A stretch of DNA of 64,000 nt from an uncultured Bacteroidota bacterium (GCA_903829015.1 CAIKOJ010000098.1:1773-65772); one strand, 5' to 3'; shown: positions 6,700-61,854, counted from the stretch's first letter. The notes: generated by a model from the letters alone, not told the origin. Translations and numbers: made by a program.

Positions 6700-7581
6700 A
6701 TGAAGCATGCATATATTTTCCCGGGTCAGGGTGCGCAGTTTGTAGGGATGGGTAAAAACCTTTATGAGCAGAACGAAACAGCAAGAGCACTTTTCGAAAA
6801 AGCCAATGAAATTCTTGGATTCCGGATCACAGATATTATGTTCAATGGCACGGCCGATGAACTTAAGCAGACTAATGTAACACAGCCAGCCATTTTTTTG
6901 CATTCAGTAATACTGTTCGAAACCACGCCCGACCTGAAACCTGATATGGTTGCAGGGCATTCTTTGGGCGAATTCTCAGCTTTGATAGCCAATAAGGTTC
7001 TGTCTTTTGAAGACGGACTGAGGCTGGTGGCAAAACGTGCTGCCGCAATGCAACGCGCCTGTGAGATCAATCCATCAACCATGGCTGCTGTACTGGGGTT
7101 GGATGATGCAAGGGTAGAGGAAATTTGCAGGGAGTTTACTACCGAGGTGGTAGTAGCAGCTAACTATAACTGCCCCGGACAATTAGTGATCAGCGGCAGC
7201 AACGAAGGTGTAACCCAAGCTTGCGAAAAGCTGAAAGCTGCCGGTGCGAAACGTGCGTTGTTGTTGCAGGTAGGTGGCGCATTTCACTCTCCGCTCATGG
7301 AGCCGGCAAGGCAGGAACTGCAGGAAGCTATCGCAGCTACTCATTTCAATACGCCTACATGCCCCGTTTACCAGAACGTCGATGCAATGCCATATTCCGA
7401 TCCCCAGCTCATCAAACAAAATCTCATCAATCAGCTAACCTCACCTGTCCGCTGGACTCAGACTGTTTTGAAAATGGTAGAAGATGGAGCCACTCAGTTT
7501 ACTGAAGTAGGTCCGGGTAATGTCCTGCAGGGCTTGGTAAAGAAGATCAGCAAAGACGCACAGGCTGACGGGATTAGTTGA
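6700..7581 (+). CDS. fabD: Malonyl-CoA:ACP transacylase
   Basis: FPGQGAQ, GHSLGEFS and GAFHS motifs. Confidence 0.96.
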   Translation: MKHAYIFPGQGAQFVGMGKNLYEQNETARALFEKANEILGFRITDIMFNGTADELKQTNVTQPAIFLHSVILFETTPDLKPDMVAGHSLGEFSALIANKVLSFEDGLRLVAKRAAAMQRACEINPSTMAAVLGLDDARVEEICREFTTEVVVAANYNCPGQLVISGSNEGVTQACEKLKAAGAKRALLLQVGGAFHSPLMEPARQELQEAIAATHFNTPTCPVYQNVDAMPYSDPQLIKQNLINQLTSPVRWTQTVLKMVEDGATQFTEVGPGNVLQGLVKKISKDAQADGIS

Positions 7582-7635
7582 TTGGTTGATTGGTTGAATA
7601 GTTGATTAGTTGATTGGTTGATTGGTTGAATAGTT
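7572..7635 (+). repeat. Perfect 2x32-bp tandem repeat built of 8-mers (GATTAGTT/GATTGGTT/GATTGGTT/GAATAGTT)
   Basis: 7572-7603 is identical to 7604-7635; overlaps the last fabD codons and stop. Confidence 0.95.
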
Positions 7636-7696
7636 GGATAGTAGGATAGTTGTTGCAGTTTGTTTTTTTGATGTTTTCTTGATTTAATGCTGACTC

Positions 7697-8083
7697 ATGA
7701 GTGAATCAAATGCTCATCAAAGGTTTACTGACTTAAACGTTTGGAAACAAGCTAGGTTGCTGAAACTGGAGATTTATGAATTGATAAAGCAGTTTCCGAA
7801 TGAGGAAAAGTACGATTTGGTAAGCCAACTCAGGCGATCTGCCAGATCTGTCTGCAGTAATATTGCTGAAGGGCATGGCCGGTTCACCTATAAAGATCAA
7901 CTTCATTTTTGCATTCAGTCTCGTGGTTCATTGTCAGAAGTACTGAATCACCTGATCGATGCACATGACTGCAATTACGTTGACGAAACGAAGCTTAAAA
8001 ATTTTGAGGAAAAGATAGTATCTGTTGGGAAACTGCTAAACGGATACATCACATTTCTCCGCAATGCCGCCAACCAAAAATAA
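7697..8083 (+). CDS. Four helix bundle protein (23S rRNA IVP / S23-like family)
   Basis: FTDLNVWKQA...FPNEEKYDLVSQLRRSARSVCSNIAEGHGR...SRGSLSEV signature. Confidence 0.92.
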   Translation: MSESNAHQRFTDLNVWKQARLLKLEIYELIKQFPNEEKYDLVSQLRRSARSVCSNIAEGHGRFTYKDQLHFCIQSRGSLSEVLNHLIDAHDCNYVDETKLKNFEEKIVSVGKLLNGYITFLRNAANQK

Positions 8084-8120
8084 TGTCAGGCGCAAAAAAC
8101 AGCCCACTGGGATTCCCTCC

Positions 8121-8149
8121 CCAACCCATCAACTACTCAACCAATCAAC
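8121..8149 (-). repeat. Inverted copy of the 8-mer arm downstream of the four helix bundle gene
   Basis: Reverse complement GTTGATTGGTTGAGTAGTTGATGGGTTGG matches 7585-7613 at 25/29 positions. Confidence 0.85.
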
Positions 8150-8156
8150 AAAGTAC

Positions 8157-8810
8157 TCACCTTAAATCCACCGTTTCAACCCCTGGATGTTCCTTGGGAT
8201 TCCAGGCAAAATAAGTATCCGGGATATCTGTATTTGGTTTGTAATTGCTGATTGCAATTTTGTATTTATTACCGTTCTTCTCCCAGTAGTTGCCACCAAT
8301 GATCGTGGATGATGATTTTTCCACCATCAGCTCGATCTTTACCAGTTGCTTGCTTTTGTCGTTGGGTATCAGTTCTATAAGGTCACAGTTTTTGCCTGCT
8401 TCTTTTATGTCGCCTTTGTACGAATATTTATATTCCTTGTCGTAAAAGTTGGTAAATAGTTTGGCCGGAGACATAGACTGCTCCTGAGGGTTGTAGTTGG
8501 TTATCTGCACCTCTTTGGCTTCTTTATTGTACGTCCATACGGTTTTGGCATCACAGATTATTTCCTGCCCTGCTATCAGCACATGGTATTTCTGACCTTT
8601 CAGAGATACCGATCCTTTTTTAGAATCATTTACTTTGCCTCCTTTGCCCCCGGTAAGTGTCAGTGCAAAATTGGCTTTCAAAGATTTAAGCGCATTAATC
8701 TTCTTGCTTACACCCTCCAGTATTGTTTTTGCTTTAGTATCGTTCTGTGCAAAAACAGGCTGAACCATACTACACAAAGCGACCGCACTAACTGCTAATA
8801 ATTTTCTCAT
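8157..8810 (-). CDS. lolA: Outer membrane lipoprotein carrier protein LolA family
   Basis: Signal peptide, KTVWTYN..KEVQI motif, usual position downstream of ftsK. Confidence 0.85.
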   Translation of the reverse strand: MRKLLAVSAVALCSMVQPVFAQNDTKAKTILEGVSKKINALKSLKANFALTLTGGKGGKVNDSKKGSVSLKGQKYHVLIAGQEIICDAKTVWTYNKEAKEVQITNYNPQEQSMSPAKLFTNFYDKEYKYSYKGDIKEAGKNCDLIELIPNDKSKQLVKIELMVEKSSSTIIGGNYWEKNGNKYKIAISNYKPNTDIPDTYFAWNPKEHPGVETVDLR

Positions 8811-20902: not shown

Positions 20903-22798
20903 TTACGAAACATACTCACTCAGTTCCAGCCAGCGTAGTTCTTTTGTTTCGAGCTCGCTGGTGATGAAAACAATACGATTACTGAGCTGTTGTATCTCGT
21001 CGTAATTCAGATTGGGATTCATCATTTTCTCTGTGATCACGGTTTTCTCTGCTTCCAGAGCGGCTATGTCTTTTTCCAGTTGGTCGTACTCCCGCTTGTC
21101 TTTGAAAGAGAATTTCTTTTTCTCAGGTGCCGGTTTCGGAGTTTCAGCTTTTGGCTTTTCGGCTTCGGGCTTTTCTGAATTTTTTTTCGGTTCTTTTTCT
21201 TTGGCTCTTTCCTCTATACGGTAGTTGCTGTAGTTGCCCGGGAAATCGCGTACTACACCATCGCCCTCAAACACAAACAGATGGTCTACCAGCCTGTCCA
21301 TAAAATAACGGTCGTGAGATACGATGAGCAGGCAACCCGGAAAATCGGTAAGGAAATTCTCTAACACCGAAAGGGTGGGGAGGTCGAGATCGTTGGTAGG
21401 TTCATCGAGTATCAGGAAGTTGGGATTGGTGAATAGTATGGACAACAACTGCAGCCTTTTCTTCTCACCACCACTGAGTTTGGATAGGTAGGTATACTGC
21501 TGTTCCGGCGGAAACAGGAATAATGTAAGGAACTGGGAGGCGCTCAAAGTACTGCCATCGGCGAGCGGGAAATTCTCTGCAATATTCTTTACAAATTCTA
21601 TGATCCGCATATCCTCCTTGATCACCAGCCCATGCTGCGAGAAGTTGCCAAATACTACTGTATCGCCAATGTTTATTTTGCCGCTGTCTTGTGCCTCAAG
21701 GCCCTGCAGCATCTGCAGGAAGGTGCTCTTGCCTGCACCATTCTTACCTATAATACCCAGGCGCTCCCCTTTTTTGAAAGTATAGTCGAAGCCCTTTAGT
21801 ATCACTTTATCGCCATAGCTTTTGTATACCTTTTTCAGCTCGGCCACCTTGCCGCCCATTCGGCTCATTTTCATTTGCAGTTCTACCTGCAGGTCCACTA
21901 CCTTTTGTTTGGCTTTGCCTTCAATTTCATAAAAGTTATCCTGCCGGCTTCTCGACTTTGTGGTGCGGGCTCTGGGCTGTTTGCGCATCCATTCCAGTTC
22001 TTTACGGTACTGGTTGCGCGCCTTGTCTATATTGGCGATTGTGTTTTCAATACGTGCGGCTTTTTTCTCCAGATACTCGCGGTAGTCGCCTCTGTAGGTA
22101 AACAGATTTTCTTCATCGAGCTCCCATATTTCATCACACACATCTTCCAGAAAGTACCTATCGTGGGTAACCATGAGCAGTGTTACTTTTTCGTGGTTCA
22201 GGTAGTTTTCCAGCCACTCTACCATAGTTACATCGAGGTGGTTGGTAGGCTCATCCATGATCAGCAGTACGTGCTTATGCTCAAAGCCAATATCGATAAG
22301 CACCTGCGCAAGCGCCACACGTTTACGCTGGCCGCCCGATAGTGTTTTTACCTTCTGATCGAGGTTGTCAATATTGAGCTTGTTGAGTATCTGGTGCACT
22401 TTGGCTTCAAAATCCCATGCACCCAGTTCGTCTATTCTTGCCAGCGCGGCAGACAGCTCGTTATGGTCTTTAGACCCTTCCGCAAGTATTTTTTCGTAGT
22501 TGCGCATGGCCTCGGCCACGGGGTGCTTGTAATGAAATATATTATCCAGTACCGATAATTCTTCGGCAAACTGCGGCTCCTGCTCAAACAGCGCTACAGT
22601 TACATCTTTATGTATCCATATGGTGCCTTCGTCTACGGTGTCTTTGCCGGCCAGTATTTTCAGCAGGGTACTTTTGCCACTGCCGTTGCGGGCAATAAGG
22701 GCTATTTTATCGCCCTCGCTGATGTGGAAGGTGATATCTGTGAACAGGGGCTTGATACCATATGACTTGCTGATCTTGTCGGCTGAAACGTAATGCAT
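20903..22798 (-). CDS. ABC-F family ATP-binding protein (Uup-like)
   Basis: Two ABC domains (RNGSGKS/LSGGQ, KNGAGKS/LSGGE), no TM, C-terminal coiled coil; start ATG 22798. Confidence 0.93.
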   Translation of the reverse strand: MHYVSADKISKSYGIKPLFTDITFHISEGDKIALIARNGSGKSTLLKILAGKDTVDEGTIWIHKDVTVALFEQEPQFAEELSVLDNIFHYKHPVAEAMRNYEKILAEGSKDHNELSAALARIDELGAWDFEAKVHQILNKLNIDNLDQKVKTLSGGQRKRVALAQVLIDIGFEHKHVLLIMDEPTNHLDVTMVEWLENYLNHEKVTLLMVTHDRYFLEDVCDEIWELDEENLFTYRGDYREYLEKKAARIENTIANIDKARNQYRKELEWMRKQPRARTTKSRSRQDNFYEIEGKAKQKVVDLQVELQMKMSRMGGKVAELKKVYKSYGDKVILKGFDYTFKKGERLGIIGKNGAGKSTFLQMLQGLEAQDSGKINIGDTVVFGNFSQHGLVIKEDMRIIEFVKNIAENFPLADGSTLSASQFLTLFLFPPEQQYTYLSKLSGGEKKRLQLLSILFTNPNFLILDEPTNDLDLPTLSVLENFLTDFPGCLLIVSHDRYFMDRLVDHLFVFEGDGVVRDFPGNYSNYRIEERAKEKEPKKNSEKPEAEKPKAETPKPAPEKKKFSFKDKREYDQLEKDIAALEAEKTVITEKMMNPNLNYDEIQQLSNRIVFITSELETKELRWLELSEYVS

Positions 22799-22807
22799 AA
22801 GAGGCGG

Positions 22808-22815
22808 CAAAGGTA
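22808..22815 (-). promoter_or_regulatory. Bacteroidota -7 promoter element for the ABC-F gene
   Basis: TACCTTTG on the minus strand, 9 nt before the ATG. Confidence 0.65.
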
Positions 22816-22835: not shown

Positions 22836-23023
22836 GTTAGTAGATAGTCGTTAGTAGATAGTAGATGGTCGGGAGGCGTTAGTAGATAGTCGTTAGTAGA
22901 TAGTAGATGGTCGGGAGTAGTTGGTATTTAGTAGCCCTCCTTCGCTACAGCCGCCGTTGAAACTATGGCTGTTAATAAAAAAAGCTACGGCGGGTAAAAT
23001 AGTAGATAGTAGATGGTCGGGAG
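22836..23023 (+). repeat. 40-bp unit GTTAGTAGATAGTCGTTAGTAGATAGTAGATGGTCGGGAG, two perfect copies plus one partial
   Basis: Copies at 22836-22875 and 22878-22917, partial at 23000-23023; internal 7-nt periodicity. Confidence 0.93.
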
Positions 23024-23137
23024 GGGATTGGGAATTTCCCATTTTTAGCGATAAGTTGTAAAAGTGCGTAACTGATTGGTAATCAGGTTAATTGCCTGGA
23101 AAAATTTCTCAAAAACTACCCAAGTGGGAAGATCAGG

Positions 23138-23159
23138 ACCTGCCTGCCGGCAGGCAGGT
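23138..23159. repeat. Perfect 22-bp palindrome ACCTGCCTGCCGGCAGGCAGGT (REP-like)
   Basis: Sequence equals its own reverse complement. Confidence 0.9.
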
Positions 23160-23399
23160 TTAGGGATTTTAGGATTTTCAGAATGCTCTACTTTATATTA
23201 TAAAATATTTTACCGCAAGATTTTTAAAAGGTTCACAAAGGATAGATTGTTATAAAATCAACCGGAAGCAAACTTCCGTTTCACTTCCGGTTTCTTCCGG
23301 TGGCGGAAATGCCGAAAATGACGTAACTTATTGATAATCAATTGTATTTTGTAGTAATTGCGGGTTCGGTTGAAAAACCTGGATACCGGAAGCCGCAAA

Positions 23400-23449
23400 C
23401 CCCAAACCCCCGCCTGCGGTGAAGCTTCGGCGCAGGCCTAAAGGGGCTT
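23400..23449. repeat. REP-like hairpin GCCTGCG...CGCAGGC nested within CCCC/TAAAGGGG
   Basis: Stem 23412-23418 pairs with 23431-23437. Confidence 0.7.
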
Positions 23450-23662
23450 CCCCATATTAAGTAATCCGAAAAAATGAATTACCGATAGAGTCGCGTAAAT
23501 ATCGGATATGGACAGGAAATGGCAAAATCAAAAATCTATGATAGGACGTATGCTGCCAGTGATGGGACGGAGGGGGCCTATGATGGGAAAAAGTTTGAGG
23601 TGATATGCAATATTCTAAATTTGAATTTTTTGTTTATTTTTAGGTTGAGCGTGGTGCATTCG

Positions 23663-23709
23663 CCAGTCGGAGACTGGTAACAACGAAACCGTAGGCGGAG
23701 ACTACGGTT
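23663..23709. repeat. Pair of REP-like hairpins sharing a CGGAGACT core
   Basis: CCAGTC-GGA-GACTGG at 23663-23677 and AACCGTAG-GCGGAGA-CTACGGTT at 23687-23709. Confidence 0.75.
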
Positions 23710-23776
23710 AACGGGGATTTTTTATAGAAAATAGTTAGATTGTCGAAATAATCTATTTTCGCATTAAATTTTATTT

Positions 23777-24304
23777 ATGAACCGAAAAATAACACTATTA
23801 TTAGCTTTTTTGATTTGCATAATTTCTGCTGACTCTTTTGCGCAAAAATGTAGATTTGAAAAAGATGAAATAGATGGCTTTACAAAAGAGCGTTTTAGGT
23901 TGGCACCGCGTTTACCAATAAGCAAATCACCACCCTGGTGGGTGCAAATGGAACAAAAAAAAGACAAGTTCTTTTTCAATATTCAGATTTTTGTGCTGGG
24001 TGAGGTGCGTGTTCGCATGGAGCAGGGCAACAAGATTCTTGCAAAATTGGAAGATGGATCCATTATTGAACTTGTTGCGGACAAGGAGGTCACCCCAAAA
24101 TTTGATTTGTATGCAAATAGTGTCTCCACAGAGTGGGCTATTCACATATCTATTTCAGAAGATGATATGAAAAAATTCAGCTTGTCTCCAATACAACTTA
24201 TGCGAACAACTATAGGAGGAACTGAATACAACATGCCTGATGCAGGCCCCAGGTACACTGCAAAAATTACAGAAATGGCAGCATGTATGCTAAAAAAAGA
24301 TTAA
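23777..24304 (+). CDS. Hypothetical secreted protein
   Basis: 175-aa ORF with a classical signal peptide (…ADSFAQ). Confidence 0.7.
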   Translation: MNRKITLLLAFLICIISADSFAQKCRFEKDEIDGFTKERFRLAPRLPISKSPPWWVQMEQKKDKFFFNIQIFVLGEVRVRMEQGNKILAKLEDGSIIELVADKEVTPKFDLYANSVSTEWAIHISISEDDMKKFSLSPIQLMRTTIGGTEYNMPDAGPRYTAKITEMAACMLKKD

Positions 24305-24372
24305 AGGAATTGGATATAGTATGTGGTTCCGCAGAGCCATTTGTAGATGGAAAGATAGCCAATTCCGCCGCC

Positions 24373-24599
24373 GTTGGTGTTCCTCACCATCAGCATCGCG
24401 CAGGGCTATAAATAACACGGCTTCACAAAATCCCACACATGGATTGTGGCTGTAAAGAATATTAGATCGTATTTGCTTGATGAAGCCAATGCCGGAGCCG
24501 TTCAATCAAAGATAGCTATCAGCTTTTATTAGTTCATTTCGGCTTTTTCGCCGGCCTGCTTTTCCCGGCGCGAGCTTGTTGGTGAAGAACACCAACAAG
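24373..24599. repeat. Inverted pair of REP-like elements TGGTGA(G/A)GAACACCAAC
   Basis: 24373-24389 is the reverse complement of 24580-24596 (16/17); perfect 10-bp stem at 24575-24599. Confidence 0.75.
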
Positions 24600-24711
24600 G
24601 GCGAAAAAAGGAGTTTTATCAGAAGTTCCGGATATAGTTCCCGAACAACGTGGCCAATTTATTATAAGAGTTATTTACTTTTGGTAATTTCAGTTAAAAT
24701 ATTTTTAAATA

Positions 24712-25215
24712 ATGAACTTCAAAATAAAAATTACCTCTTCTGACTATATACGATTAATGTTCTTGCTTCGATATAGAAAACCATATTCGATTTTTGTAAC
24801 AATTCTTGGTTTTGTTATGCTCGCATTATCAATTCGTTCTTTTTCAGGTGAAGATAACTATGTACAGCAACCGGTTATCCTTATGGTGTTTTGTTTAATG
24901 ATTATAATAGGTGTTCCTATTTCTTTATATTTAACATCAAAGAGAAACTTCAATTCCAACTATCGGTTGCAGGAGGAGATTGAATGCGAATTATCTAATG
25001 ATAATATGAAAATGAGAGGTGAAACATTTAATACTGAGAGTGATTTGAACCAAACCTATAAAATTGAAGAATTGAAGAATTGGTTCTTATTATTTCAAAA
25101 CAGGACTATTTTTAATCTAATACCTAAAAAAGGCATGACCGTTGAAGAAATTAATACTGCTAGAAATATTTTCCGCAACGTCAAAAACAATCGTACGATA
25201 TTAAAATTGAAATGA
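24712..25215 (+). CDS. YcxB family membrane protein
   Basis: Two TM segments followed by a YKIEELKNWFLLF...LIPK-type C-terminal domain. Confidence 0.75.
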   Translation: MNFKIKITSSDYIRLMFLLRYRKPYSIFVTILGFVMLALSIRSFSGEDNYVQQPVILMVFCLMIIIGVPISLYLTSKRNFNSNYRLQEEIECELSNDNMKMRGETFNTESDLNQTYKIEELKNWFLLFQNRTIFNLIPKKGMTVEEINTARNIFRNVKNNRTILKLK

Positions 25216-25224
25216 AATTTCATT

Positions 25225-25504
25225 GTCTCCACCCAGTGTCCTTTTTCAGGCACTCGGGGGCATAAGAGCACTGAAGTTGAAATGTTTTCTTCACCTGTTA
25301 CTATCTAGCTACGTCCCGGCATCGGTCGCTACAGTACTTTACCTGATCCCAAACCTTTTCCCATTTTTTTCGCCAAACAAATGGTCGCTGGCATACTACA
25401 CATATTTTGGTAGGCAGGTCGCTTTTTTTTACTGTTTTGTTATTATGCTTCATCTTCGTTTGTGCGTTACCCCGTCTCCACAGAGTGTTCTATTTCAGGC
25501 ACTC
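25225..25504 (+). repeat. 31-bp imperfect direct repeats flanking the DUF2256 gene
   Basis: 25225-25255 vs 25474-25504 match at 27/31 (GTCTCCAC..AGTGT.CT.TTTCAGGCACTC). Confidence 0.85.
25301..25453 (-). CDS. DUF2256 domain small protein (50 aa, missed by the ORF track)
   Basis: Manual translation [50 protein letters not shown]. Confidence 0.88.
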
Positions 25505-25690
25505 AGCGGCATTAAAGGATGTATAAAGAATTACTTGAACTCCATTGAGTGATACTAGCTAGTGCCAAAGAAAAGCCAAGGTTTGTTGGAGGGCCCGTGT
25601 AAGATAAATTAAGTCGCGCTGTAAGCATACCTCTTTTCTCCCCAAAATAGTTATTTTTAACCCTATATTTTTTCTCCAACCAATAAGCAG

Positions 25691-27670: not shown

Positions 27671-27808
27671 TGGGAAGTATATGATTATCTGAAATTTGCC
27701 CTGAGTATAACCCCTCCTTTTTACATTTCACTGACAATTCAGCGGCTACGGTCAGATGTAATCTATGGGTGTTGAACTAGTTTTGCAGCTCATAATTGAC
27801 ATATTAAA

Positions 27809-28888
27809 ATGACTGCCATTTCTACTCAATCCATAGCTACTGCATTATTATTGTCTGTATCACTTTTGTCCAGGGCACAGGATAAAACCCCACTGGCCTA
27901 TCCGGATGAAAAGCATTTTAAAAACATGCGCCAGCTTACCAACGGCGGAGACAATGCAGAGGCGTATTTTGGATTTGACAATGAGCATGTAACTTTTCAG
28001 CGCACCAACCCCAAAGAGGGTGTGGACTGCGATCAGATATTTTATGGTACAATTCCAAAATCAGCAACAGGTAAATTTGATTACAAGAAGGTAAGCACAG
28101 GTAAGGGTAGAACTACATGTGCCTACCTGATGCCCGACAAAAAGCATTTTTTGTACGCATCGACCCACAAGGCCGCAGATACCTGTCCGCCCACACCAGA
28201 CAGAAGCAAGATCAAGAAATATGTATGGCCTATTTACGACAGCTATGATATTTATGTAGCTGACTTTAACGGCAAGATCACCAAGCAACTGACCAATACT
28301 CCGGGCTATGATGCCGAGGGTACTGTATCGCCAAAGGGAGATAAGATCATCTTCACTAGTATGCGCAATGGTGATATAGACCTGTACACCATGAACCTGG
28401 ACGGCACCAATGTAAAGCAGATCACCAACACGCTGGGTTATGATGGTGGTGCGTGTTTCTCGCCCGATGGTAAGAAAATAGTATGGCGTGCAAGCAGACC
28501 GCAAACAGAAGCCGATGCAAAGGAGTATAAAGAATTGCTGGCACAGGGGCTGGTAATGCCTACCAAAATGGAATTGTTTATAGCCAATGCAGATGGTACA
28601 GATGCGCATCAGGTAACACACCTGGGTAAGGCTAACTGGGCACCAGCTTTTACACCAGATAGTAAGAGGCTGATCTTCGCATCGAACCACGAATACGAAA
28701 GAGGTTTTCCGTTTAATCTATACCTGGTGAATTTTGACGGTACCGGACTGGAGCGCATTTCTCATGACGGCAGTTTCGATGCCTTCCCAATGTTCTCGCC
28801 AGATGGTAAGAAGCTGATCTTCAGTTCTAACCGCAACAACAACGGCGGGCATGATACCAATGTATTTATTTGTGATTGGGTGGAGTAG
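27809..28888 (+). CDS. TolB-like PD40 beta-propeller secreted protein
   Basis: Repeated SPDGKK..F.S motifs, GYDAEGTVSPKG, signal peptide. Confidence 0.85.
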   Translation: MTAISTQSIATALLLSVSLLSRAQDKTPLAYPDEKHFKNMRQLTNGGDNAEAYFGFDNEHVTFQRTNPKEGVDCDQIFYGTIPKSATGKFDYKKVSTGKGRTTCAYLMPDKKHFLYASTHKAADTCPPTPDRSKIKKYVWPIYDSYDIYVADFNGKITKQLTNTPGYDAEGTVSPKGDKIIFTSMRNGDIDLYTMNLDGTNVKQITNTLGYDGGACFSPDGKKIVWRASRPQTEADAKEYKELLAQGLVMPTKMELFIANADGTDAHQVTHLGKANWAPAFTPDSKRLIFASNHEYERGFPFNLYLVNFDGTGLERISHDGSFDAFPMFSPDGKKLIFSSNRNNNGGHDTNVFICDWVE

Positions 28889-31812: not shown

Positions 31813-31922
31813 GGGGATTGGGAATTGGGAATTGGGAATTGAGAATTTGGGATTTGGGAATTTGGAGTTGGGGATTTGGGAGTTGGGGATTGGGAATTTG
31901 GAATTGGTAATTGGGAATTGGG
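31812..31922 (+). repeat. G-rich heptamer array (GGGAATT-like units) starting at the tex stop codon
   Basis: GGGAATT/GGGATTT/GGAGTT units over about 110 bp. Confidence 0.95.
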
Positions 31923-31970
31923 TTTGTGCGGAAATTTGTATTTTGTACGCCGTAGGGATGTGCCTCGCAG

Positions 31971-32001
31971 ACTTACGACTCATAACTTACGACTCTCAAC
32001 T
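31971..32001 (+). repeat. A/C-rich heptamer array (ACTTACG ACTCATA ACTTACG ACTCTCA ACT) abutting the crcB ATG
   Basis: Read directly from the sequence; ATG at 32002. Confidence 0.85.
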
Positions 32002-33736: not shown

Positions 33737-33750
33737 GTAAGGGGCTCAGG

Positions 33751-46659: not shown

Positions 46660-46718
46660 CACCCGACGCTTCCATAAACGTGGATTTTACTTTTTAATTT
46701 TACTTTTTAACTTAGCAT

Positions 46719-50310: not shown

Positions 50311-51252
50311 TCACCCCAACATCATCTTTTTCATTTTCCAGAGGAGGGAGTCGTTTTTGTAGAGCACGATGTAGAGATTTCTTTGTCCGCCGAAGTTGCG
50401 GAAGAAGCGCTCTACGCCTTCATCCATACTGCCTTCGAGGTCGAAGGTGTGGTGTCCCATTTTTTTGGCCTCTTTCATGGCATGCCATAAAAGTAACGAC
50501 ATTGATTTATAGCCGCTGGCTTCGGGGTTTTGTCCGCCCATAAAGTAGTAACTGCAATGGTCGTCGAAAACCTGCCAAATTATAGCTTCAGTGGTTTTGC
50601 CGTTTTTGGCTACCCAAAGGCGCGCAGCATTATTTGCAGTACAAGCCTGCATGATGCGTTCCAGATCGGCAAGGGTATAGGGTATTTCATTACCTTTTTT
50701 TGAAAGGGTCTGTTTATGAAACGCAAACAGTTCAGGTAATGCAGCGGTTGATTCAGTGATGGTAATCTCGCCAGCAGTCTGCTTGAGATTGCGGCGCATG
50801 GTGTCCTTCATGTCGGACAGTAGAACTGATTCGTCCTTATTCAGTGCCAGCGTGAAGGTTTGCTGCACCTGAGGACGGAGGCCATATTTTTTGAACAGTC
50901 CTACCTGCTTTATACCTGGCTCAACTGCCAGGTGCCACACTTTGAATGTAGGCAGTTGTTTCATGAGGTCGGCAATGGTATCGTGCTCATGACTGTCGAG
51001 TTTGCTTTCTTTCAGGTCGTCGGGGTAAAAAACATGAGGGCCCAGGTAGGGAGTAAGCAGGGGAGTGCGCAGCATATTCACACCCATTTTATGCTCTACA
51101 GGGTATGGCCATATACCTGTAACCAGATCGCCCTTAGTGGCTACAGCAGCATCCCACTCGGTACAAACGGCATCGAGCCACCAGGGCTGCATGAACAGCG
51201 GTATGCCCTTGTGCTTTTTACAGATGTCGATATACCGGTTCTTTTTAGTCAT
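50311..51252 (-). CDS. GNAT/FemAB-like acyltransferase
   Basis: PLFMQPWWLDAVC, LLLWHAM..A......FDLEGSM.EGVERFFRNFGG; start ATG 51252. Confidence 0.8.
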   Translation of the reverse strand: MTKKNRYIDICKKHKGIPLFMQPWWLDAVCTEWDAAVATKGDLVTGIWPYPVEHKMGVNMLRTPLLTPYLGPHVFYPDDLKESKLDSHEHDTIADLMKQLPTFKVWHLAVEPGIKQVGLFKKYGLRPQVQQTFTLALNKDESVLLSDMKDTMRRNLKQTAGEITITESTAALPELFAFHKQTLSKKGNEIPYTLADLERIMQACTANNAARLWVAKNGKTTEAIIWQVFDDHCSYYFMGGQNPEASGYKSMSLLLWHAMKEAKKMGHHTFDLEGSMDEGVERFFRNFGGQRNLYIVLYKNDSLLWKMKKMMLG

Positions 51253-51315
51253 AAGTCGCAATTAGTACATAGTAATTAGTACATAGTAATTAGTCGTAAG
51301 TATATCCTGAGTCGT
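51251..51315 (-). repeat. Heptamer array overlapping the GNAT start (AATTAGT/ACATAGT units; AGTCGTAAGT)
   Basis: 14-mer AATTAGTACATAGT at 51260-51273 and 51274-51287, then AATTAGTCGTAAGT. Confidence 0.85.
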
Positions 51316-54565: not shown

Positions 54566-57500
54566 ATGAAATGTAAATTTTTACTTTTTTGTTTTGTCAT
54601 GTTAATGACGGGGATGTTCCAAAACGGATATGCCCAGGTGGAATTGATCTCGACTATTTCGGGTGGTGCCAGTGGATTTGCAGGTGACGGGAGTCCAGCG
54701 AGTGCTGGTCGTTTTAACCAGAATTATATGATCACTACTGATGCTGCGGGTAATCTGTATATCGCTGATAACGGTAACGCACGTATCAGAAAGATCACAG
54801 CATCTACCGGTATCATCACAACAATAGCAGGAAGTGCAACAACAGGATCAGGAGGTGATGGTGGGCCAGCAACAGCAGCACTGTTGGGTGGTGTTGGTGG
54901 ACCGAATCCCGGTGTAGTAGGTGTTGCAGTGGATGCGGCGGGCAACGTTTATATATCAGACGGTACCAATCACCGAATCAGAAAAGTAGATGCCAGTACG
55001 GGTATTATCACAACTATTGCCGGGACTACAGCGGGATATTCAGGAGACGGATCGAGTGCTATGACCGCTCAGTTGAACGGACCAAGGGGCATTTGCGTAG
55101 ACGCCGCAGGTAATATTTACATTGCTGATGGCGGCAATCAGAGGATCCGGAAAGTTAACGGATTGACGGGTATGATCACTACAGTGGCGGGTAATGGAAC
55201 TGGGGGATATGTAGGCGATAACGTGGTTGCAACAAACACAAGGATCAACAACCCAAGAAGTGTGGCTATAGATGCTGCGGGTTACTTGTATATAGCGGAT
55301 ATGACCAACAGCCGTATACGCAGAGTTGATCTGGCTACTGATACAATAATTACTGTTGTAGGTACTGGTACTGCTGGTTTTTCAGGAGACGGAGGTGCAG
55401 CGGCAACAGCACAGGTTAATCTGCCTACGGATATGAAGTTTGATGTAGCAGGCAATATGCTTATTGCAGACGTGAGTAATAACCGTGTGAGAATGGTTAC
55501 CCCTGGCGGAATTATTTCTACAGTGGCCGGTGGCGGCGGTTTTGCAGGTTTTGCCGGAGATGGTTCTCCAGCTACCTCGGCGAGTGTAAGAATGTCGTCG
55601 CCGACTTCGATTGCGCCAACGTCTAACCCTAATTATTTTTATATTTCGGACAGAGGCAATAACAGGATCAGGTATGTGAAGCCAAACAGTATCCCCTATT
55701 TTACAGGTGGTACAACAATGCCTTTTGTTGTTTGTCAGAATTCAATTGGTGACACTATCAATACCTTGTTGCAGGTTAGGGACACTGACCTTGCTCAGAC
55801 ACTTACATGGAGTGTAGTTACACCTGCCAATCATGGTGCATTGGTAGGTAGCGCACTTGCAACGTCGAATGGTGGTGCGGTTACGCCTACAGGGTTGTAT
55901 TATACACCTACAACGGGATACAGTGGACTTGATACGTTTGTAATCCAGATTTCTGATGCATACAATACTTCTACAGCTACCGTTTATGTAACAGTGAATC
56001 CATTACCAGTGGTTGCTGCAATCGGAGGATCGAACACAGTATGTTTAGGAGGCACTACCACACTTACGGATGCAACCGGTGGTGGAACGTGGAGCGCCAC
56101 CAATGCTAATGCATCTGTTGCATCTGGAGTTGTGACAGGATTAATTCTTGGTGTGGATACAATTAATTATGCATTGACTAATGCTTGTGGTACAACAACA
56201 GTATCGAAAGTGGTGACGGTGATCACTACTCCCGCCATACCTGCGGCAATAACCGGACCGACTTCGGTTTGTGCAGGCAGCGGAATCATATTGAACGATG
56301 CTACGACAGGAGGTGTATGGACCAGCAGTGCAACAGGTATTGCAACAGTTGGTTCGCTGACCGGTGGTGTGACAGGTGTAACGGCAGGTACTGCAAATAT
56401 ATCTTATACTGTTACAAATGCCTGTGGCAGTGCATTTGTATTTAGCACAGTTACTGTAAATGTTGCTCCCGGAGCCATCAGTGGTTCGGCAATATCTTGC
56501 GTTGGTGCTTCCAATTCATTGACCAGTTCACCAGGAGGTGGCACATGGACGAGCAGCAACACTGCCGCAGCAACTATAGGTTCTTTAACAGGTTCTGTGA
56601 CCGGAGTAGGTGTTGGTAACTCCACAATATCTTATACGCTAGGTAACGGTTGTTTTTCAACACTGCCGGTAACTGTAAATGCGCCTCCCGCATCAATCAC
56701 AGGTTCCCTGAACGTTTGTGTTGGCGGAACTACTACTTTAACTGATGGCGGTGGTGGAACATGGACTTCGGGTACTCCGGGTGTAGCAACTATCGGGTCT
56801 TCTACTGGTGTTGTAACGGCAATAGCTCCCGGCACATCGGTCATCACTTATGCTGTTGGCGGCTGCTCAGTAACAGCAACTGTAACAGTAGCGGCCAATC
56901 CGGCGGCAATAACTCCGGCTACGCCAGTAAATATTTGTGTAGGCGCTACAGCATCTTTAGGTGATGTAACACCTGCCGGTGTTTGGTCGAGCGGCGCTAC
57001 TGGTATAGCTACGGTGGGTACCTCGGGTACTGTTACCGGTGTATCGGCAGGCTCTGCAACAATTTCATATACTGTTTCCGGTTGTTCTTCAATTAAGACG
57101 GTAACTGTGTTGCCAACTCCAACTGCGCTTTCTCCGGTATCGGCACGCATTTGTGTAGGTCTTACAGCAACATTCACTGAATCTGTGGCGGGTGGTATAT
57201 GGTCTAGCAGTGCATCAGGTACGGCAAGTGTAGTAGGTGGTGTTGTTACTGGCGTTGCAGCAGGTACTGCTACTATTTCATATGCGATCGGTACGTGCTC
57301 GGTTACAGCACCGGTTACAGTTGTTGCGAATCCTGCTGCTATAACTCCGGCTGGTGGACTTAATATTTGTGTGGGCTCAACAGGAAGCCTGGCTGATGCT
57401 ACTCCGGGTGGAGTATGGAGCAGTGGCGCTACTGGCATAGCAACAGTTGGTACCTCTGGTACAGTAACAGGTGTGGGTTCTGGTGTAGCTGCAATATCAT

Positions 57501-60500
57501 ACACAGTTGGCGGATGTTCTTCGCTTTCGTCCGTAACAGTAAACGTTGTTCCGGCAGCAATCTCGCCGACAACGGCAACGGTTTGTCCGGGAAGTACAGT
57601 TACTCTGACTGATGCTACTCCGGGTGGAACCTGGACCAGCACAGCACCATCAGTTGCTACTGTAGTGGGCGGTGTGGTGACAGGTGTAACAGCAGGTACA
57701 ACAACAATTTCTTATGCTTTAGGTATCTGTGCAGTTTCGGCAACGGTAACAGTAAACCCTGCACCAAATGCAGGAACGATCTCCGGACCGAATACAGTTT
57801 GTACAGGTTTGACGATCTCATTGACAGATGCTACTTCAGGCGGTGTTTGGAGCAGCAGCAATCCGGGTGTGGCTACAGTAGGCACTACGGGCATTGTAAC
57901 CGGCGTTAGTTTTGGGTCTGTGACTATTTCTTATTCAGTAACCAACAGTTGTGGAACAGCAGTTGCAACGTATGGTGTTACGGTTAGTGCGGCGGCAAGT
58001 GCCGGTGTTATTTCAGGATTAAGCTCATTGTGCGCAGGCACATTTACAATAATGACCGAAACTGTGACAGGTGGTGTATGGAGCGTTACAAATACAAATG
58101 CAAGTGTTACCGGAACTGGTGTTGTTACCGGTATTACTCCGGGTATTGATACTGTAAAATATACCGTTACCAATGCATGCGGATCTGTTTCGGCAGTACA
58201 TCCTATCAACATTGGACCTTTCCTTACAGCTGGTACTATAACCGGGGCTTCAACGGTATGTCAGGGTTCAACAATAACATTGGCTGACGCGACTCCGGGG
58301 GGCGTTTGGAGTTCGAGTTCTACAGGTGTGGCCACTATAAGTTCGGGTGGCGTGGTGACAGGTGTGAGCGGCGGAACGACAACAATATCTTATACAGTAA
58401 CCAGCAGCTGTGGCAGTATATCGGCTACAAAAATCGTGAATGTTACCCCAACTCCAATTGCAGGTTCTATTTCCGGCTCAACAACGATTTGTGAAGGAAT
58501 GACCGGGTTATATACGGATGCAGCTCCGGGCGGTACATGGAGTGTAACGAACGGTAATGCTACAATCTCCGGCGGTGGATCGCTGACAGCTATTACAGCC
58601 GGCGTTGATACTGTTGTATACACGGTTACCAACTCTTGTGGTACGGCTACAGCTATGTTAGAAGTTACAATAGGAGCGGCAATTACAGCGGGATCTATTT
58701 CGGGCTCTACAACAGTTTGCGAAGGTGCTTCGATTACATTGACAGACGGAACACCAGGTGGTGTGTGGAGCGCAAGTAATACCAATGCTACAGTTGTGGG
58801 TGGTATTGTAACCGGGGTGTCTGCGGGCATCGTGGATATCTCTTATACTGTAACCAGTGCGTGCGGTTCAGCTTCAGCAGTTGTAACTATATTGGTTGAT
58901 CCATTGCCGGATCCGGGTACGATTGCCGGACCATCTGTAGTATGTGTGGGTACTTCGATCACGCTTACAGATGCAGCATTGGGTGGTGTATGGAGCGCCA
59001 GCAATGCTAATGCTACGGTAGTTGGTGGTGTGGTTACCGGTATTAGTTCTGGAACTGACGATATCTCTTATACAGTAACGAACGGATGTGGTACTGCATC
59101 GGCAGTTAGTACAATATTAATATCTGTAACTCCTTTTGCAGGAACGATCTCTGGTCCATCGAATGTTTGTCCGGGTGCATCAATTACATTGACAGATGCG
59201 GCACCAGGCGGAACATGGAGTGCCAGCAATACAAATGCTACAGTAGCCGGAGGAATTGTAACCGGTGTTACAGCAGGTACTGTTGATATATCTTATACCG
59301 TGACTACAGGTTGTGGTACGGCATCTACATCAGTAACAATTGTTGTCGATCCATTGCCTGACGCAGGTACAATAACCGGCCCAACCAACGTTTGTATAGG
59401 TGCTACAATAACACTTACAGATGCAGCACCAGGTGGTGTTTGGAGTGCAAGCAATACGAATGCAACCGTTTCGGGTGGTGTGGTTACAGGTGTTACTGCA
59501 GGCACCGACGATATCAGTTATACAGTAACCAACGTTTGTGGTACTGCAAGTGCAATTAGCACCATCAGCATAGATCCTTTGCCAGATGCAGGCGCAATTA
59601 CTGGTATTCCTTTTGTTTGTGTGGGTACAACAACCATATTGGCAGATGCTGCACCGGGTGGTGTATGGAGTGCGAGCAATGCAAATGCCACTGTATCTGG
59701 TGGTGTTGTTACAGGCGTTAGTGCAGGAACTGTTGACATTTCTTATTCAGTAACCAATAGTTGCGGAACTGCAGTGGCGTCAGCTACTATTACAGTAAAT
59801 GATCCGCCTACAGTGGGTGCTATAAGCGGACCGACAACTGTTTGCAAGACCAGCACCATAACGCTTACCAATGGAACAGCAGGTGGCGTATGGAGTGCTA
59901 CTAACAGCCGCGCTACAGTAACTTCAGCCGGTTTGGTAACTGGTGTTGCTACCGGTATTGATACGATAAAGTACACAGTATCGAATGCGTGCGGAAGTGT
60001 TTCTGCGATGAAGGCAATAACAGTTATACAGACACCAAGCCCTGGTACAATTACAGGCGCTTCTACGGTATGTGAAGGTGCAACAATTATATTGACTGAT
60101 CCGGTGACCGGTGGTGCATGGAGCAGCAGCAGTACTTCAACAGCAACAGTTTCGGGTGGAGTTGTAACAGGTGTTGCTACCGGATCGGCAACTATATACT
60201 ACACTGTTTCTAACGTGTGCGGTACCAGATCGGCCACTCATGCTGTTACCGTGCTTTCGGCTTCTGATTGCAGTGCTGCAGTAAAAACTACGGCTGCTGT
60301 GCAGGATGAGCTGAAAGTATATCCTAATCCTAATAAAGGCGTATTCAGTATGAATCTGATAGCTGAAAATGAAGAGCAGGTAAATGTTGTGATCACCAAT
60401 ATTATTGGTAAGAAAGTAAAAGAATTCAACACTGCTACCAACAGAGCGAATGAAATACAAATGAATGTAGCTCCTGGTATCTATCTGCTGACTGCAACTA

Positions 60501-60541
60501 CAGTGAATGGCAGGTATGTGACCAAGGTTACCATTGAATAG
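54566..60541 (+). CDS. Large T9SS-secreted adhesin-like protein: NHL repeats, cadherin/Big-like domain, 19 Ig-like repeats, type A CTD
   Basis: GFAGDG/GNLYIAD.GN.RIRK NHL repeats; 19 units of xCxGxTxxLxDxxxGGxWSxxNxxATVxGxVTGVxxGxxxISY; KVYPNPNKG CTD. Confidence 0.9.
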   Translation: MKCKFLLFCFVMLMTGMFQNGYAQVELISTISGGASGFAGDGSPASAGRFNQNYMITTDAAGNLYIADNGNARIRKITASTGIITTIAGSATTGSGGDGGPATAALLGGVGGPNPGVVGVAVDAAGNVYISDGTNHRIRKVDASTGIITTIAGTTAGYSGDGSSAMTAQLNGPRGICVDAAGNIYIADGGNQRIRKVNGLTGMITTVAGNGTGGYVGDNVVATNTRINNPRSVAIDAAGYLYIADMTNSRIRRVDLATDTIITVVGTGTAGFSGDGGAAATAQVNLPTDMKFDVAGNMLIADVSNNRVRMVTPGGIISTVAGGGGFAGFAGDGSPATSASVRMSSPTSIAPTSNPNYFYISDRGNNRIRYVKPNSIPYFTGGTTMPFVVCQNSIGDTINTLLQVRDTDLAQTLTWSVVTPANHGALVGSALATSNGGAVTPTGLYYTPTTGYSGLDTFVIQISDAYNTSTATVYVTVNPLPVVAAIGGSNTVCLGGTTTLTDATGGGTWSATNANASVASGVVTGLILGVDTINYALTNACGTTTVSKVVTVITTPAIPAAITGPTSVCAGSGIILNDATTGGVWTSSATGIATVGSLTGGVTGVTAGTANISYTVTNACGSAFVFSTVTVNVAPGAISGSAISCVGASNSLTSSPGGGTWTSSNTAAATIGSLTGSVTGVGVGNSTISYTLGNGCFSTLPVTVNAPPASITGSLNVCVGGTTTLTDGGGGTWTSGTPGVATIGSSTGVVTAIAPGTSVITYAVGGCSVTATVTVAANPAAITPATPVNICVGATASLGDVTPAGVWSSGATGIATVGTSGTVTGVSAGSATISYTVSGCSSIKTVTVLPTPTALSPVSARICVGLTATFTESVAGGIWSSSASGTASVVGGVVTGVAAGTATISYAIGTCSVTAPVTVVANPAAITPAGGLNICVGSTGSLADATPGGVWSSGATGIATVGTSGTVTGVGSGVAAISYTVGGCSSLSSVTVNVVPAAISPTTATVCPGSTVTLTDATPGGTWTSTAPSVATVVGGVVTGVTAGTTTISYALGICAVSATVTVNPAPNAGTISGPNTVCTGLTISLTDATSGGVWSSSNPGVATVGTTGIVTGVSFGSVTISYSVTNSCGTAVATYGVTVSAAASAGVISGLSSLCAGTFTIMTETVTGGVWSVTNTNASVTGTGVVTGITPGIDTVKYTVTNACGSVSAVHPINIGPFLTAGTITGASTVCQGSTITLADATPGGVWSSSSTGVATISSGGVVTGVSGGTTTISYTVTSSCGSISATKIVNVTPTPIAGSISGSTTICEGMTGLYTDAAPGGTWSVTNGNATISGGGSLTAITAGVDTVVYTVTNSCGTATAMLEVTIGAAITAGSISGSTTVCEGASITLTDGTPGGVWSASNTNATVVGGIVTGVSAGIVDISYTVTSACGSASAVVTILVDPLPDPGTIAGPSVVCVGTSITLTDAALGGVWSASNANATVVGGVVTGISSGTDDISYTVTNGCGTASAVSTILISVTPFAGTISGPSNVCPGASITLTDAAPGGTWSASNTNATVAGGIVTGVTAGTVDISYTVTTGCGTASTSVTIVVDPLPDAGTITGPTNVCIGATITLTDAAPGGVWSASNTNATVSGGVVTGVTAGTDDISYTVTNVCGTASAISTISIDPLPDAGAITGIPFVCVGTTTILADAAPGGVWSASNANATVSGGVVTGVSAGTVDISYSVTNSCGTAVASATITVNDPPTVGAISGPTTVCKTSTITLTNGTAGGVWSATNSRATVTSAGLVTGVATGIDTIKYTVSNACGSVSAMKAITVIQTPSPGTITGASTVCEGATIILTDPVTGGAWSSSSTSTATVSGGVVTGVATGSATIYYTVSNVCGTRSATHAVTVLSASDCSAAVKTTAAVQDELKVYPNPNKGVFSMNLIAENEEQVNVVITNIIGKKVKEFNTATNRANEIQMNVAPGIYLLTATTVNGRYVTKVTIE

Positions 60542-60562
60542 TAGTTGAGCTTATTAAGTTAA

Positions 60563-60597
60563 AAAACGGGGCTGTTCTTACTGAACAGCCCCGTTTT
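60563..60597 (+). terminator. Rho-independent terminator (15-bp perfect stem)
   Basis: AAAACGGGGCTGTTC-TTACT-GAACAGCCCCGTTTT. Confidence 0.88.
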
Positions 60598-60791
60598 CAT
60601 TTCGGGTAAAAGGTATGTGGAAAAACAGCTTATGCGGTTGGGCACTGTTTTTGCAGGTTGGGAATTTACCTGACTTACCAACAATTTTTGGTCAAAAACG
60701 GGCTCTAATCCTTTACAGCAAAGGGTTTGGCCGGTTCCGAAAATTGTGGATATCTTCTTTTTGAAAATAGAAATCGTGTGTTTTTTTCAGC

Positions 60792-60799
60792 TAATTTTG
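60792..60799 (+). promoter_or_regulatory. -7 promoter element for recA
   Basis: TAATTTTG, 11 nt before ATG 60811. Confidence 0.6.
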
Positions 60800-60810
60800 G
60801 TAAAAGATTT

Positions 60811-61824
60811 ATGGCTAAAACAGCAAGTAATATGGCAGACGATAAATTAAAAGTTTTGAAACTGGCGCTCGACAAGATCGAGAAAGATTACGGAAAGGGT
60901 TCTGTAATGATGCTTGGAGACAAGCAAAACGAAAAGATGGATGTGATCAGCACAGGCTCAATAGGGCTTGATGTGGCACTGGGAGTAGGCGGATTGCCAT
61001 GTGGCAGGATCGTAGAGATATACGGTCCGGAATCATCTGGTAAAACGACGGTAGCTATACATACAATTGCACAGGCACAAAAGAAAGGCGGTATATGTGC
61101 TATTATAGATGCGGAACACGCATTTGATGCCAGCTATGCACGCAAGCTAGGTGTAGACGTTGATAACCTTATTATATCGCAGCCCGACTACGGTGAGCAG
61201 GGGCTTGAGATCGCTGATCGCCTGATATCATCTGGTGCGGTGGATGTGGTGGTTATTGACTCTGTTGCTGCACTTGTGCCGAAGGGAGAACTGGACGGTG
61301 AAATGGGTGAAAGCAAAATGGGTCTGCAGGCGCGCCTAATGAGCCAGGCACTCAGAAAGCTTACGGCTACTATATCAAGAACAGGCTGCTGCTGTATATT
61401 CATTAATCAGCTCAGGGAGAAAATTGGTGTGATGTTTGGCAATCCGGAGACTACTACGGGTGGTAATGCGCTTAAGTTTTATGCTTCAGTGCGTTTGGAT
61501 ATACGTCGTATCAGTCAGATAAAAGATGGAGATGTAGCCAGCGGTAACCGTACAAGGGTGAAAGTGGTGAAAAACAAAGTGGCACCGCCATTCAGGCAGG
61601 TGGAATTTGATATCATCTTTGGAGAAGGTATCAGCAAAATGGGAGAGATCATTGATATGGGTGTAGAACTGGGTATTCTGCAGAAGAGCGGATCCTGGTT
61701 CAGCTACAACGATAGTAAAATAGGTCAGGGCAGGGATTCTGTAAAACAGTTCCTTACCGACAACCCGGAGATGAGCGATGAGATCGAGAAAAAGATCAGG
61801 GAATCGCTGCTGGTGGTTGCATAA
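60811..61824 (+). CDS. recA: Recombinase A
   Basis: [16 protein letters not shown] and [12 protein letters not shown] motifs; start ATG 60811 (alternative 60832). Confidence 0.98.
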
Positions 61825-61854
61825 GAGAGAGTTTGTTTAGTTGGTTTAGTACAC

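Follow-up and report, generated by a model that had tools for sequence, protein, structure and literature searches.

The DNA considered here, called the window, is the full stretch of 64,000 nt at CAIKOJ010000098.1:1773-65772 (GCA_903829015.1) from an uncultured Bacteroidota bacterium near the Chitinophagaceae, whose nearest GTDB representative is 'Sphingobacteriales bacterium AM_0832' and whose genome has genes of the type IX secretion system (T9SS), PorP/SprF and LolA1_Flavo. Between its genes lie short tandem arrays with units of mostly 7-8 nt, and two of these arrays, one the approximate reverse complement of the other, enclose a small gene for a four-helix-bundle (4HB) protein between fabD and lolA, whilst others stand alone beside tex, crcB, an ABC-F gene and a GNAT gene. 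A preliminary description of the window had proposed that such arrays obey a polarity, being G/T-rich after stop codons and A/C-rich before start codons, an observation that is largely right; the rule is real, although it is better put as a handedness of G versus C at the boundaries of open reading frames (ORFs).

At the fabD-lolA junction the final codons of fabD and its TGA stop (7579-7581) lie within the 8-nt array, which supplies the stop. This array, the G arm of the cassette, is free of C, has a G+T content of 0.77 and carries 4-5 stops in each of the three frames. The spacer that separates it from the 4HB gene has no TAnnTTTG promoter motif (7653-7696), and beyond the gene lies the C arm, which contains no start codons and ends 4 nt from the stop of lolA (8157-8159, minus strand), so that on the lolA strand it is G-rich after that stop. 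The two arms form the sole complementary pair in the window (7582-7612 with 8122-8152, 31 nt, 87%), just as the preliminary description had it, and in the minimum-free-energy fold of the RNA they close the whole 4HB gene into a loop (z -2.5, 20 shuffles; the pairing is absent from the centroid structure).

The 4HB protein matches TIGR02436 with an E value of 2.4e-32 (111 bits, cut-off 24), the identical gene at a related locus (L001) is matched by PF05635, and the closest solved structure is 2GSC, the protein XCC0516 of Xanthomonas (E 1.4e-12). Whilst the family of elements had at first been left unmatched to any named system, it can be named, as it is like the intervening sequences (IVSs) of 23S rRNA and has TIGR02436/PF05635 cargo. 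The gene is, judging from its dN/dS of 0.05 between the window and the close relative L003, under purifying selection. A search of the protein against the PADLOC defence models returned no family at E <=0.01, and its neighbours are fabD, lolA and ftsK. In metagenomes the 8-nt array has about 20x the baseline read depth and is therefore multicopy. Of the RNA runs searched for the cassette none contain it, with one metatranscriptome yielding three uninformative fragments.

It is apparent from related sequence that this arrangement is general. Two sets were used, the first of 80 loci from GTDB genomes picked by a scan with the 4HB protein, the second of 1.03 Mb picked via Tex and containing no 4HB gene, which together amount to 2.2 Mb. 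In nearly all of the 80 loci, which come from lineages that include Bacteroidota, Patescibacteria and a PVC (Planctomycetes-Verrucomicrobia-Chlamydiae) bacterium, the 4HB gene has a short-period array on its upstream side and the reverse complement of that array on the other. The arm units vary between lineages (GATTAGTT, GTTAAAGG, GGAATTG, GATTAAT, TAGT and others), yet within each cassette the arms stay complementary despite these differences. A score for inverted flanks placed 57 of the 77 4HB genes of these loci above the 95th percentile of 1276 other genes, which bears out the proposal of one family of repeat-flanked micro-cassettes with many types of arm; the remaining high scorers were further paralogues of the 4HB gene, RAYT-like transposases between REP-type sequences, and a few ordinary genes whose brackets run the other way round. 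The 82 cassettes represent 43 junction types, with arms present in 36 of the 43 and the G-rich arm upstream in 33 of 35; counted by cassette, the 5' arm has more G than C in 67 of 70, the spacer from arm to ATG has a median of 33 nt (70 cassettes) and in 69 of 82 the 4HB gene points the same way as the gene before it. About seven of the 4HB copies are truncated. Cargo other than the 4HB gene is rare, and of the cargo types that had been suggested for inverted pairs the 4HB genes are found whilst no GxxExxY or toxin-antitoxin genes were seen. Most 4HB genes of the 23S rRNA IVS family lie in such hairpin loops, and the fabD-lolA site is one example.

Handedness at gene boundaries

The arrays of the window were detected with Tandem Repeats Finder (TRF) and their significance taken from 200 dinucleotide shuffles. 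Intergenic arrays with a score of at least 40 number 5 where 0.29 are expected and no shuffle gave more than 2, and those with a score of at least 30 number 15 against 3.1; in coding DNA there is no excess (8 observed and 8.2 expected at a score of at least 30). The intergenic excess over shuffles means that the strong arrays are real. Those that abut a stop are C-free on the coding strand and those that abut a start are G-poor, although with 4 of 4 scorable arrays (p=0.12) the window alone holds too few to establish a rule.

In the wider sequence the orientation of an array was scored as G minus C relative to the nearest ORF boundary. This marker replaced G+T against A+C because many arrays are A/T-rich; with the latter, which is how the polarity had been worded, there was no significant rule away from 4HB genes (p=0.17). 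Scored by G minus C, the rule is obeyed by 50 of the 74 arrays that lie more than 300 nt from any 4HB gene in the 4HB-selected loci and by 31 of 42 in the Tex-selected set. It is a matter of close contact, as within 15 nt of an ORF boundary 54 arrays are for the rule and 12 against, whereas farther away the figures are 27 and 23 (both sets), so that the window-wide polarity first proposed holds only near ORF boundaries and in terms of G versus C. Among the G arms next to 4HB genes 26 of 46 overlap the stop codon and 24 of 46 begin within -4 to +1 nt of its end. Leaders without arrays are mildly depleted in G (C 0.17, G 0.12-0.14), but trailers without arrays have no excess of G, and the bias on the stop side is therefore specific to arrays. 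Where an array has a partner arm, this lies 3' of the G strand in 92 cases versus 8 in the 4HB-selected loci and in 10 versus 0 in the Tex-selected set, 102 versus 8 in all.

These observations are one rule: the G-rich strand of an array that abuts a boundary runs 5' to 3' away from the ORF, whether at its stop or its start. The two wordings, 'G after stops' and 'C before starts', thus say the same thing, since both restate that the G strand points away from the ORF, and from this it follows that two arrays facing one another are the complementary arms of a hairpin of fixed handedness. An inverted pair reads as a G/U-rich 5' arm and an A/C-rich 3' arm on either strand and whatever the orientations of the genes; the genes outside the pair have G after a stop and C before a start, whilst the gene inside sees the reverse. 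Replication-strand bias was considered as a cause and is excluded by logic, because paired arms, and likewise stop-side and start-side arrays, carry opposite G strands at one and the same place.

That the pattern is due to chance, or is an artefact of base composition or gene calling, is hardly credible. The window has only 4-7 arrays, the tract after recA does not exceed chance, and an array between two genes can scarcely break the rule in its first wording unless its distance to the boundary is taken into account. However, such an account would have to accommodate the shuffle test, the 54 versus 12 in two independent sequence sets, the preference for one side by partner arms and the independent publication of the same rule for other phyla.

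The transcription termination factor Rho prefers C-rich, G-poor RNA. The handedness might be set by this factor, in that a C-rich, G-poor arm transcribed first would load Rho, whilst with the G/U arm first the C arm pairs as it emerges. The handedness is equal on both strands and independent of the orientation of the neighbours, as such a model requires, and the preference of Rho itself is established. Nevertheless the solo C-rich arrays lie exposed in leaders, and the loss of bias more than 15 nt from ORF boundaries is not what an effect of Rho predicts, which makes this explanation quite improbable.

Repeat arrays in the window

The genes and arrays are collected in Table 1. The preliminary description was correct in placing G/T-rich arrays at the stops of fabD and tex; the first base of the tex array directly follows the TAG stop (31810-31812). 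Read from the sequence, a quadruplex-type G3N4 motif occurs in the tex array only, and in none of the 8-nt or ACTnnnn arrays. The tex array has no partner arm in the window and no significant fold is predicted for it.

Both the crcB leader array (A+C 0.65, G 0.06) and those of the ABC-F leader (A+C 0.67, G 0.04-0.06 on the coding strand) are A/C-rich as had been claimed, and neither contains start codons. On the coding strand the ABC-F array consists of ACTATCT/ACTAACG heptamers in super-units of 42 nt. The GNAT array, to which the crcB array is partly complementary, is periodic as described; however, on the coding strand it is A/T-rich, with A+C of 0.50 and a weak excess of C over G (C 0.17, G 0.12). 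A further array, before the start at 46719, is absent from the preliminary description, and it agrees with the rule in terms of G versus C and disagrees with the wording A/C-rich. The weak array reported after recA falls in the range of chance, as about 3 of the 15 intergenic arrays in its class of score are expected by chance and it is not significant alone; a terminator-like hairpin with a T run (61856-61886) lies 3' of it. The C-rich leader arrays are predicted to be unpaired and the solo arrays unstructured (z about 0), so that the suggestion of structural elements at the level of the transcript fits the paired arms but not the solo arrays.

Table 1. Genes and repeat arrays of the window
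Feature	Position	Strand	Remarks
fabD	6700-7581	+	
fabD 5' arm (G arm)	7572-7652	+	about 10 units of 8 nt (GATTAGTT, GATTGGTT, GAATAGTT); TRF
T-rich spacer, G arm to 4HB gene	7653-7696	+	44 nt
4HB gene (TIGR02436)	7697-8083	+	128 aa; cargo in hairpin loop
3' arm (C arm)	8121-8152	+	G-free; 37 nt past 4HB stop
lolA	8157-8810	minus	
ABC-F gene	20903-22810	minus	
ABC-F solo array, first piece	22836-22920	minus	periods of 7/14/21/42 nt; 25 nt upstream of start (22810)
ABC-F array, second piece	22999-23025	minus	split from first piece by insert 22921-22998
tex	29554-31812	+	
tex solo array	31813-31926	+	GGGAATT x about 15, C-free; TRF
crcB solo array	31971-32001	+	ACTTACG/ACTCATA heptamers; last base directly before ATG (32002)
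crcB	32002-32373	+	
RNase III gene (Ribonuclease_3 + dsrm)	34089-34808	minus	adjoins ketoacyl synthase gene
Array before start at 46719	46684-46710	+	G-free 13-nt unit x2 (ATTTTACTTTTTA), 8 nt before start
GNAT/FemAB-like gene (Acetyltransf_6)	50311-51252	minus	
GNAT solo array	51256-51310	minus	ACTAATT/ACTATGT heptamers, 3-7 nt upstream of start (51252)
recA	60727-61824	+	
recA tract	61825-61850	+	G/T-rich, 9-nt period, 2.3 copies, TRF score 35; after stop 61822-61824

The insert of 78 nt that interrupts the ABC-F leader array bears a GC-rich hairpin (CCGCCGT...ACGGCGG) and is 32 nt shorter in strain X2, which is about 92-93% identical to the window. At 23018-23040 the sequence GGGGATTGGGAATTTCCCA has one unit of the GGGAATT type followed directly by its complement, and so resembles a single-unit version of the hairpin handedness. 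The long spacer upstream of the ABC-F gene (23100-23600) holds palindromes (ctgcctgccggcaggcag at about 23140) and repeats of the CCGGAAG type, and it probably has multicopy small elements, given a contig depth of about 5x baseline and the many joints in X2. An exact-protein look-up for the ABC-F protein found it not on record, and that for the GNAT protein gave matches from the same population only.

None of the arrays is a CRISPR array, as the units are 7-8 nt, head to tail and without spacers, whilst CRISPR needs repeats of 25-40 nt with unique spacers between them. Rfam and tRNA scans of the window gave no match and no rRNA. Elsewhere in the window, between the genes at 23777 and 24712, an inverted repeat of 43 nt (24363-24405 / 24564-24606, 77% complementary, 158 nt apart) brackets a small ORF region. 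The gene for the 2-oxoacid dehydrogenase E2 (32516-33736) has its last 38 nt, stop included, repeated 315 nt downstream (33707-33744 at 34022-34059, 79% identity). The gene at 54566-60541 encodes a protein of 1991 aa that contains NHL and Big_2 domains as well as a T9SS C-terminal sorting domain, and its 3' half consists of tandem domain repeats of about 225 nt (75 aa) that are 60-79% identical.

Turnover between strains and relatives

Comparison of orthologous junctions in filled and empty states had been proposed for these arrays, and both fabD|lolA and sua5|fabD turn out to be polymorphic among the window and loci L003-L006. The fabD|lolA junction holds a cassette in the window and in L003 (fabD 98% identical), and is empty, without any array, in L004 (84%); sua5|fabD is empty in the window and L003 and holds a related cassette in L004, L005 and L006. 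The 4HB proteins from the two junctions are mutual closest relatives in GTDB (69-74%). In the window the sua5|fabD spacer, which lacks a cassette (6650-6690), contains a C-free tract, GTGGATTGGTGGTTTAGGGTTT; the end of this tract and ACCCTAAAAC, part of the conserved leader of fabD, pair as a small hairpin that has the same handedness as the cassettes and is identical in L003.

The arrays also change where no cassette comes or goes. Among related strains the G arm is 50-64 nt shorter in X2 and X5 (50 nt in X2). In X2 the ABC-F array is shorter by one 42-nt unit and the tex array longer by about 49 nt, with 5 nt inserted after the stop; AAA is inserted before the crcB ATG, and at the GNAT array 57 nt are swapped for 77 unrelated nt, whilst arrays of the GNAT type are found at other loci in X2, X8 and X9. 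The recA tract is unchanged in X2. The tex-trailing array is absent in all relatives with a 64-77% identical Tex, and there is no filled/empty comparison at tex|crcB, since synteny is unconserved and the arrays are absent in metagenome relatives. At GT2|sua5 an array of 80 nt in L003 corresponds to the single unit GTTGGTTGAT in the window, a difference that suggests growth or shrinkage in place.

Other differences from L003 and X2 were seen along the way. The divergent GT2|sua5 spacer of L003 (8059-8249, against 5836-5928 in the window) contains, besides the 80-nt array of 8-mers, heptamers of the AATTCCC type around a small palindrome, and each of its arrays is C-rich on the strand of the gene that it abuts. 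A RAYT-like (IS200-type Y1) transposase gene flanked by inverted REP-like sequences of 34 nt lies at 6408-7213 of L003, where the window (4865-4990) has a short spacer only. In X2 the block 23300-27874 is joined differently (an opposite-strand joint) and 1215 other nt stand where the window has the gene at 28894-29436; both look like accessory segments amid otherwise syntenic DNA.

What the solo arrays represent can be considered in the light of this turnover. The preliminary description took them for scars of excised cassettes, or for landing pads of repeat-flanked micro-cassettes. They do share unit types with the cassette arms of the same lineages, they are weakly complementary to sequence on the side where a partner would be expected (60 versus 27, Wilcoxon p about 1e-4), and among relatives cassettes occur at different junctions beside fabD. 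However, base composition may underlie the complementarity, since spacers are unlike coding DNA, and neither form of the idea has fared well: an empty orthologous site such as fabD|lolA of L004 carries no array on which a cassette might land, and a six-frame search of the window found no decayed 4HB gene beside any solo array as a scar would leave. There are, furthermore, 54 arrays in the 1.03 Mb that lack a 4HB gene, and the single unit of the window against the 80 nt of L003 suggests growth in place. Scars or landing pads are therefore a doubtful explanation.

It is possible, though not what we favour, that the solo arrays are cis-regulatory elements of the adjoining genes, with the G-free ACTnnnn leaders acting as unstructured translation enhancers independent of a Shine-Dalgarno sequence, or as sites for S1- or Csp-type proteins, and the GGGAATT tracts as G-quadruplexes in 3' untranslated regions. 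Arrays end 0-7 nt from the start codons of crcB and GNAT, the leaders are predicted to be unpaired, and leaders without arrays are G-depleted too; regulation has been proposed for TAACTGA repeats (MacGregor 2015, PMC4679880) and formation of quadruplexes by related heptamers was found in vitro (Rehm 2015, PMC4692102). Set against this, a 93% identical strain has unrelated sequence in place of the GNAT array, the number of units differs between strains, the tex array is missing from all those relatives noted above, the neighbouring genes have no common function and array-free trailers lack the G excess. We read the solo arrays of tex, crcB, ABC-F and GNAT instead as the same class of repeat without a partner, evolving in place.

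Known systems and a possible mechanism

The arrays belong to a class known from Xanthomonas, Nostoc, Beggiatoaceae and Flexibacter, and their polarity is already published for other phyla (Rehm 2015, MacGregor 2015). In Xanthomonas and Nostoc, Rehm et al. (2015, PMC4692102) found heptamers of the types GGGAATC and GGGGAYT that have the same polarity, overlap stop codons and vary in length, with 70-75 convergent inverted pairs of GGGAATC in Xanthomonas. As here, the repeats are intergenic 7-nt tandem arrays which vary in length between strains and form convergent pairs, with the G strand coding within 50 nt after or over stops and non-coding within 50 nt before starts. The unit is GGGAATC there and GGGAATT here, and the phylum differs; most units here (GATTAGTT, ACTnnnn) have no G3 tracts, and a quadruplex therefore cannot be the common factor. 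Rehm et al. make no mention of 4HB genes (PMC4692102), whilst in their supplementary table repeat #15 lies six nt past bccP and overlaps the start of XCC0516, whose 4HB protein has been crystallised. The TAACTGA heptamers of MacGregor (2015, PMC4679880), which end a few nt before starts and occur in Flexibacter among others, are alike in that one orientation ends just before starts and the reverse lies just after a stop, in their presence in some Bacteroidetes and in an ACT phase that resembles the crcB, GNAT and ABC-F leaders. The units here, however, are ACTTACG, ACTCATA, ACTAATT and ACTATCT, with no TAACTGA arrays, and the role of TAACTGA as the site of a translational regulator is a proposed function only.

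The closest parallel to the cassette as a whole is the 23S rRNA IVS of Coxiella and Leptospira. That of Coxiella has an S23p ORF in sense, a terminal stem of 28 bp cut by RNase III and, before the ORF, tandem heptamers that vary between strains (PMC4990558). Both have the same protein family in the loop with the ORF in sense with the host transcript, in both a stem of about 30 bp is closed by inverted repeats at the termini, and both have tandem 7-nt or similar repeats of strain-variable number before the ORF; the IVS is regarded as a selfish element, and the cassette likewise. In contrast to IVSs, which reside in helix 9, 25 or 45 of 23S rRNA, the fabD-lolA cassette lies in an mRNA spacer, its arms are themselves tandem 8-nt arrays with a strong asymmetry of G and C, and its protein appears to be under purifying selection where that of Coxiella is decaying. 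Excision by RNase III is a known trait of IVSs, and would extend to the cassette by analogy.

Two further systems were compared. The repetitive extragenic palindromic (REP) sequences and REPINs served by RAYT are also short multicopy intergenic hairpin elements, with a small gene flanked by inverted copies, but REPs are unique palindromes whereas the arms here are tandem short repeats, and RAYT is a Y1 transposase with a known mechanism of cutting whereas the cargo here is a 4HB protein. For these reasons the cassette is not assigned to REP/RAYT; the RAYT-like genes that scored high in the flank test are at other loci only. We know of no enzymatic motif in the 4HB protein. It has a four-helix-bundle fold distantly related to that of Avd from diversity-generating retroelements (NF033474, E 5e-5), but at 23.5 bits against a cut-off of 80 it is not Avd, and there is no reverse transcriptase or pair of template and variable repeats beside the 4HB gene, between fabD, lolA and ftsK.

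Taken together, the reading that we favour is that strand-asymmetric 7-8-nt repeats, in which a G-rich strand free of C lies opposite one that is rich in C and poor in G, form the handed arms of hairpins around IVS-like 4HB cassettes, and that the solo arrays are of the same class and slip in place, to which we would give a probability of a little over one half (roughly 0.55). The cassette would be transcribed by read-through from fabD, the paired arms would make up a stem of about 30 bp in the RNA, and RNase III, for which the window has a gene (34089-34808), may then cut this stem as it does in 23S rRNA IVSs, releasing the loop RNA and so making the insertion harmless inside operons. As to the cause of the handedness, a filter of tolerance is favoured. 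Stops occur in every frame of the G strand; the C strand is free of start codons, has few stops or none and is predicted to stay unpaired, and it may be that only the G-first handedness puts harmless sequence at both the ends and the starts of ORFs. Such a filter fits because the bias is confined to arrays that touch an ORF boundary.

A number of points weigh against this reading. Read-through transcription of the cassette and its cleavage by RNase III are drawn from the likeness to IVSs, and the mismatches between arms have no excess of sense-strand pairs compatible with G-U (96 vs 118), so that the complementarity could be maintained at the level of DNA. A filter of tolerance alone leaves unexplained those G-first arms that start just past an intact stop, and the start side of the rule is weak in the Tex-selected set (12 vs 7). 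The 80 loci were selected through the 4HB gene itself, 16 of the 82 cassettes are at one common junction and the gene calls in related sequence come from a crude heuristic of the longest ORF.

A wider proposal is that the polar repeats of many phyla (cyanobacterial heptamers, GGGNATC, TAACTGA and the 8-mers of Bacteroidota) and the 23S rRNA IVSs are one system of hairpin cassettes, with arms made, maintained or mobilised by their own Avd-like 4HB protein, and with the empty hairpins and solo arrays as non-autonomous members served in trans as REPINs are by RAYT. We think this unlikely as it stands.

What is added to the published polarity is the tie of polar repeats to 4HB cassettes of the IVS type, which is statistically well supported, with its mechanism by analogy. 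Among the papers searched none was found that links polar repeats to 4HB cassettes, or that describes periodic inverted arms around 4HB genes outside rRNA, which is not proof that the link is unpublished. Genes for 23S_rRNA_IVP have been noted in the literature inside cas operons and in rRNA insertions of the candidate phyla radiation. The arrays break short-read assemblies, with contigs ending in them, and may account for the 'CRISPR association' reported for 23S_rRNA_IVP genes. Reports of polar heptamer and octamer repeats come from several phyla and offer no explanation of them, and 23S rRNA IVSs with their S23p ORFs have no known function or mechanism of mobility. If it is true that both are the same kind of hairpin cassette, the repeats would gain a candidate protein partner, and the IVS protein a defined nucleic-acid context outside rRNA, in culturable Bacteroidota and apparently under purifying selection.

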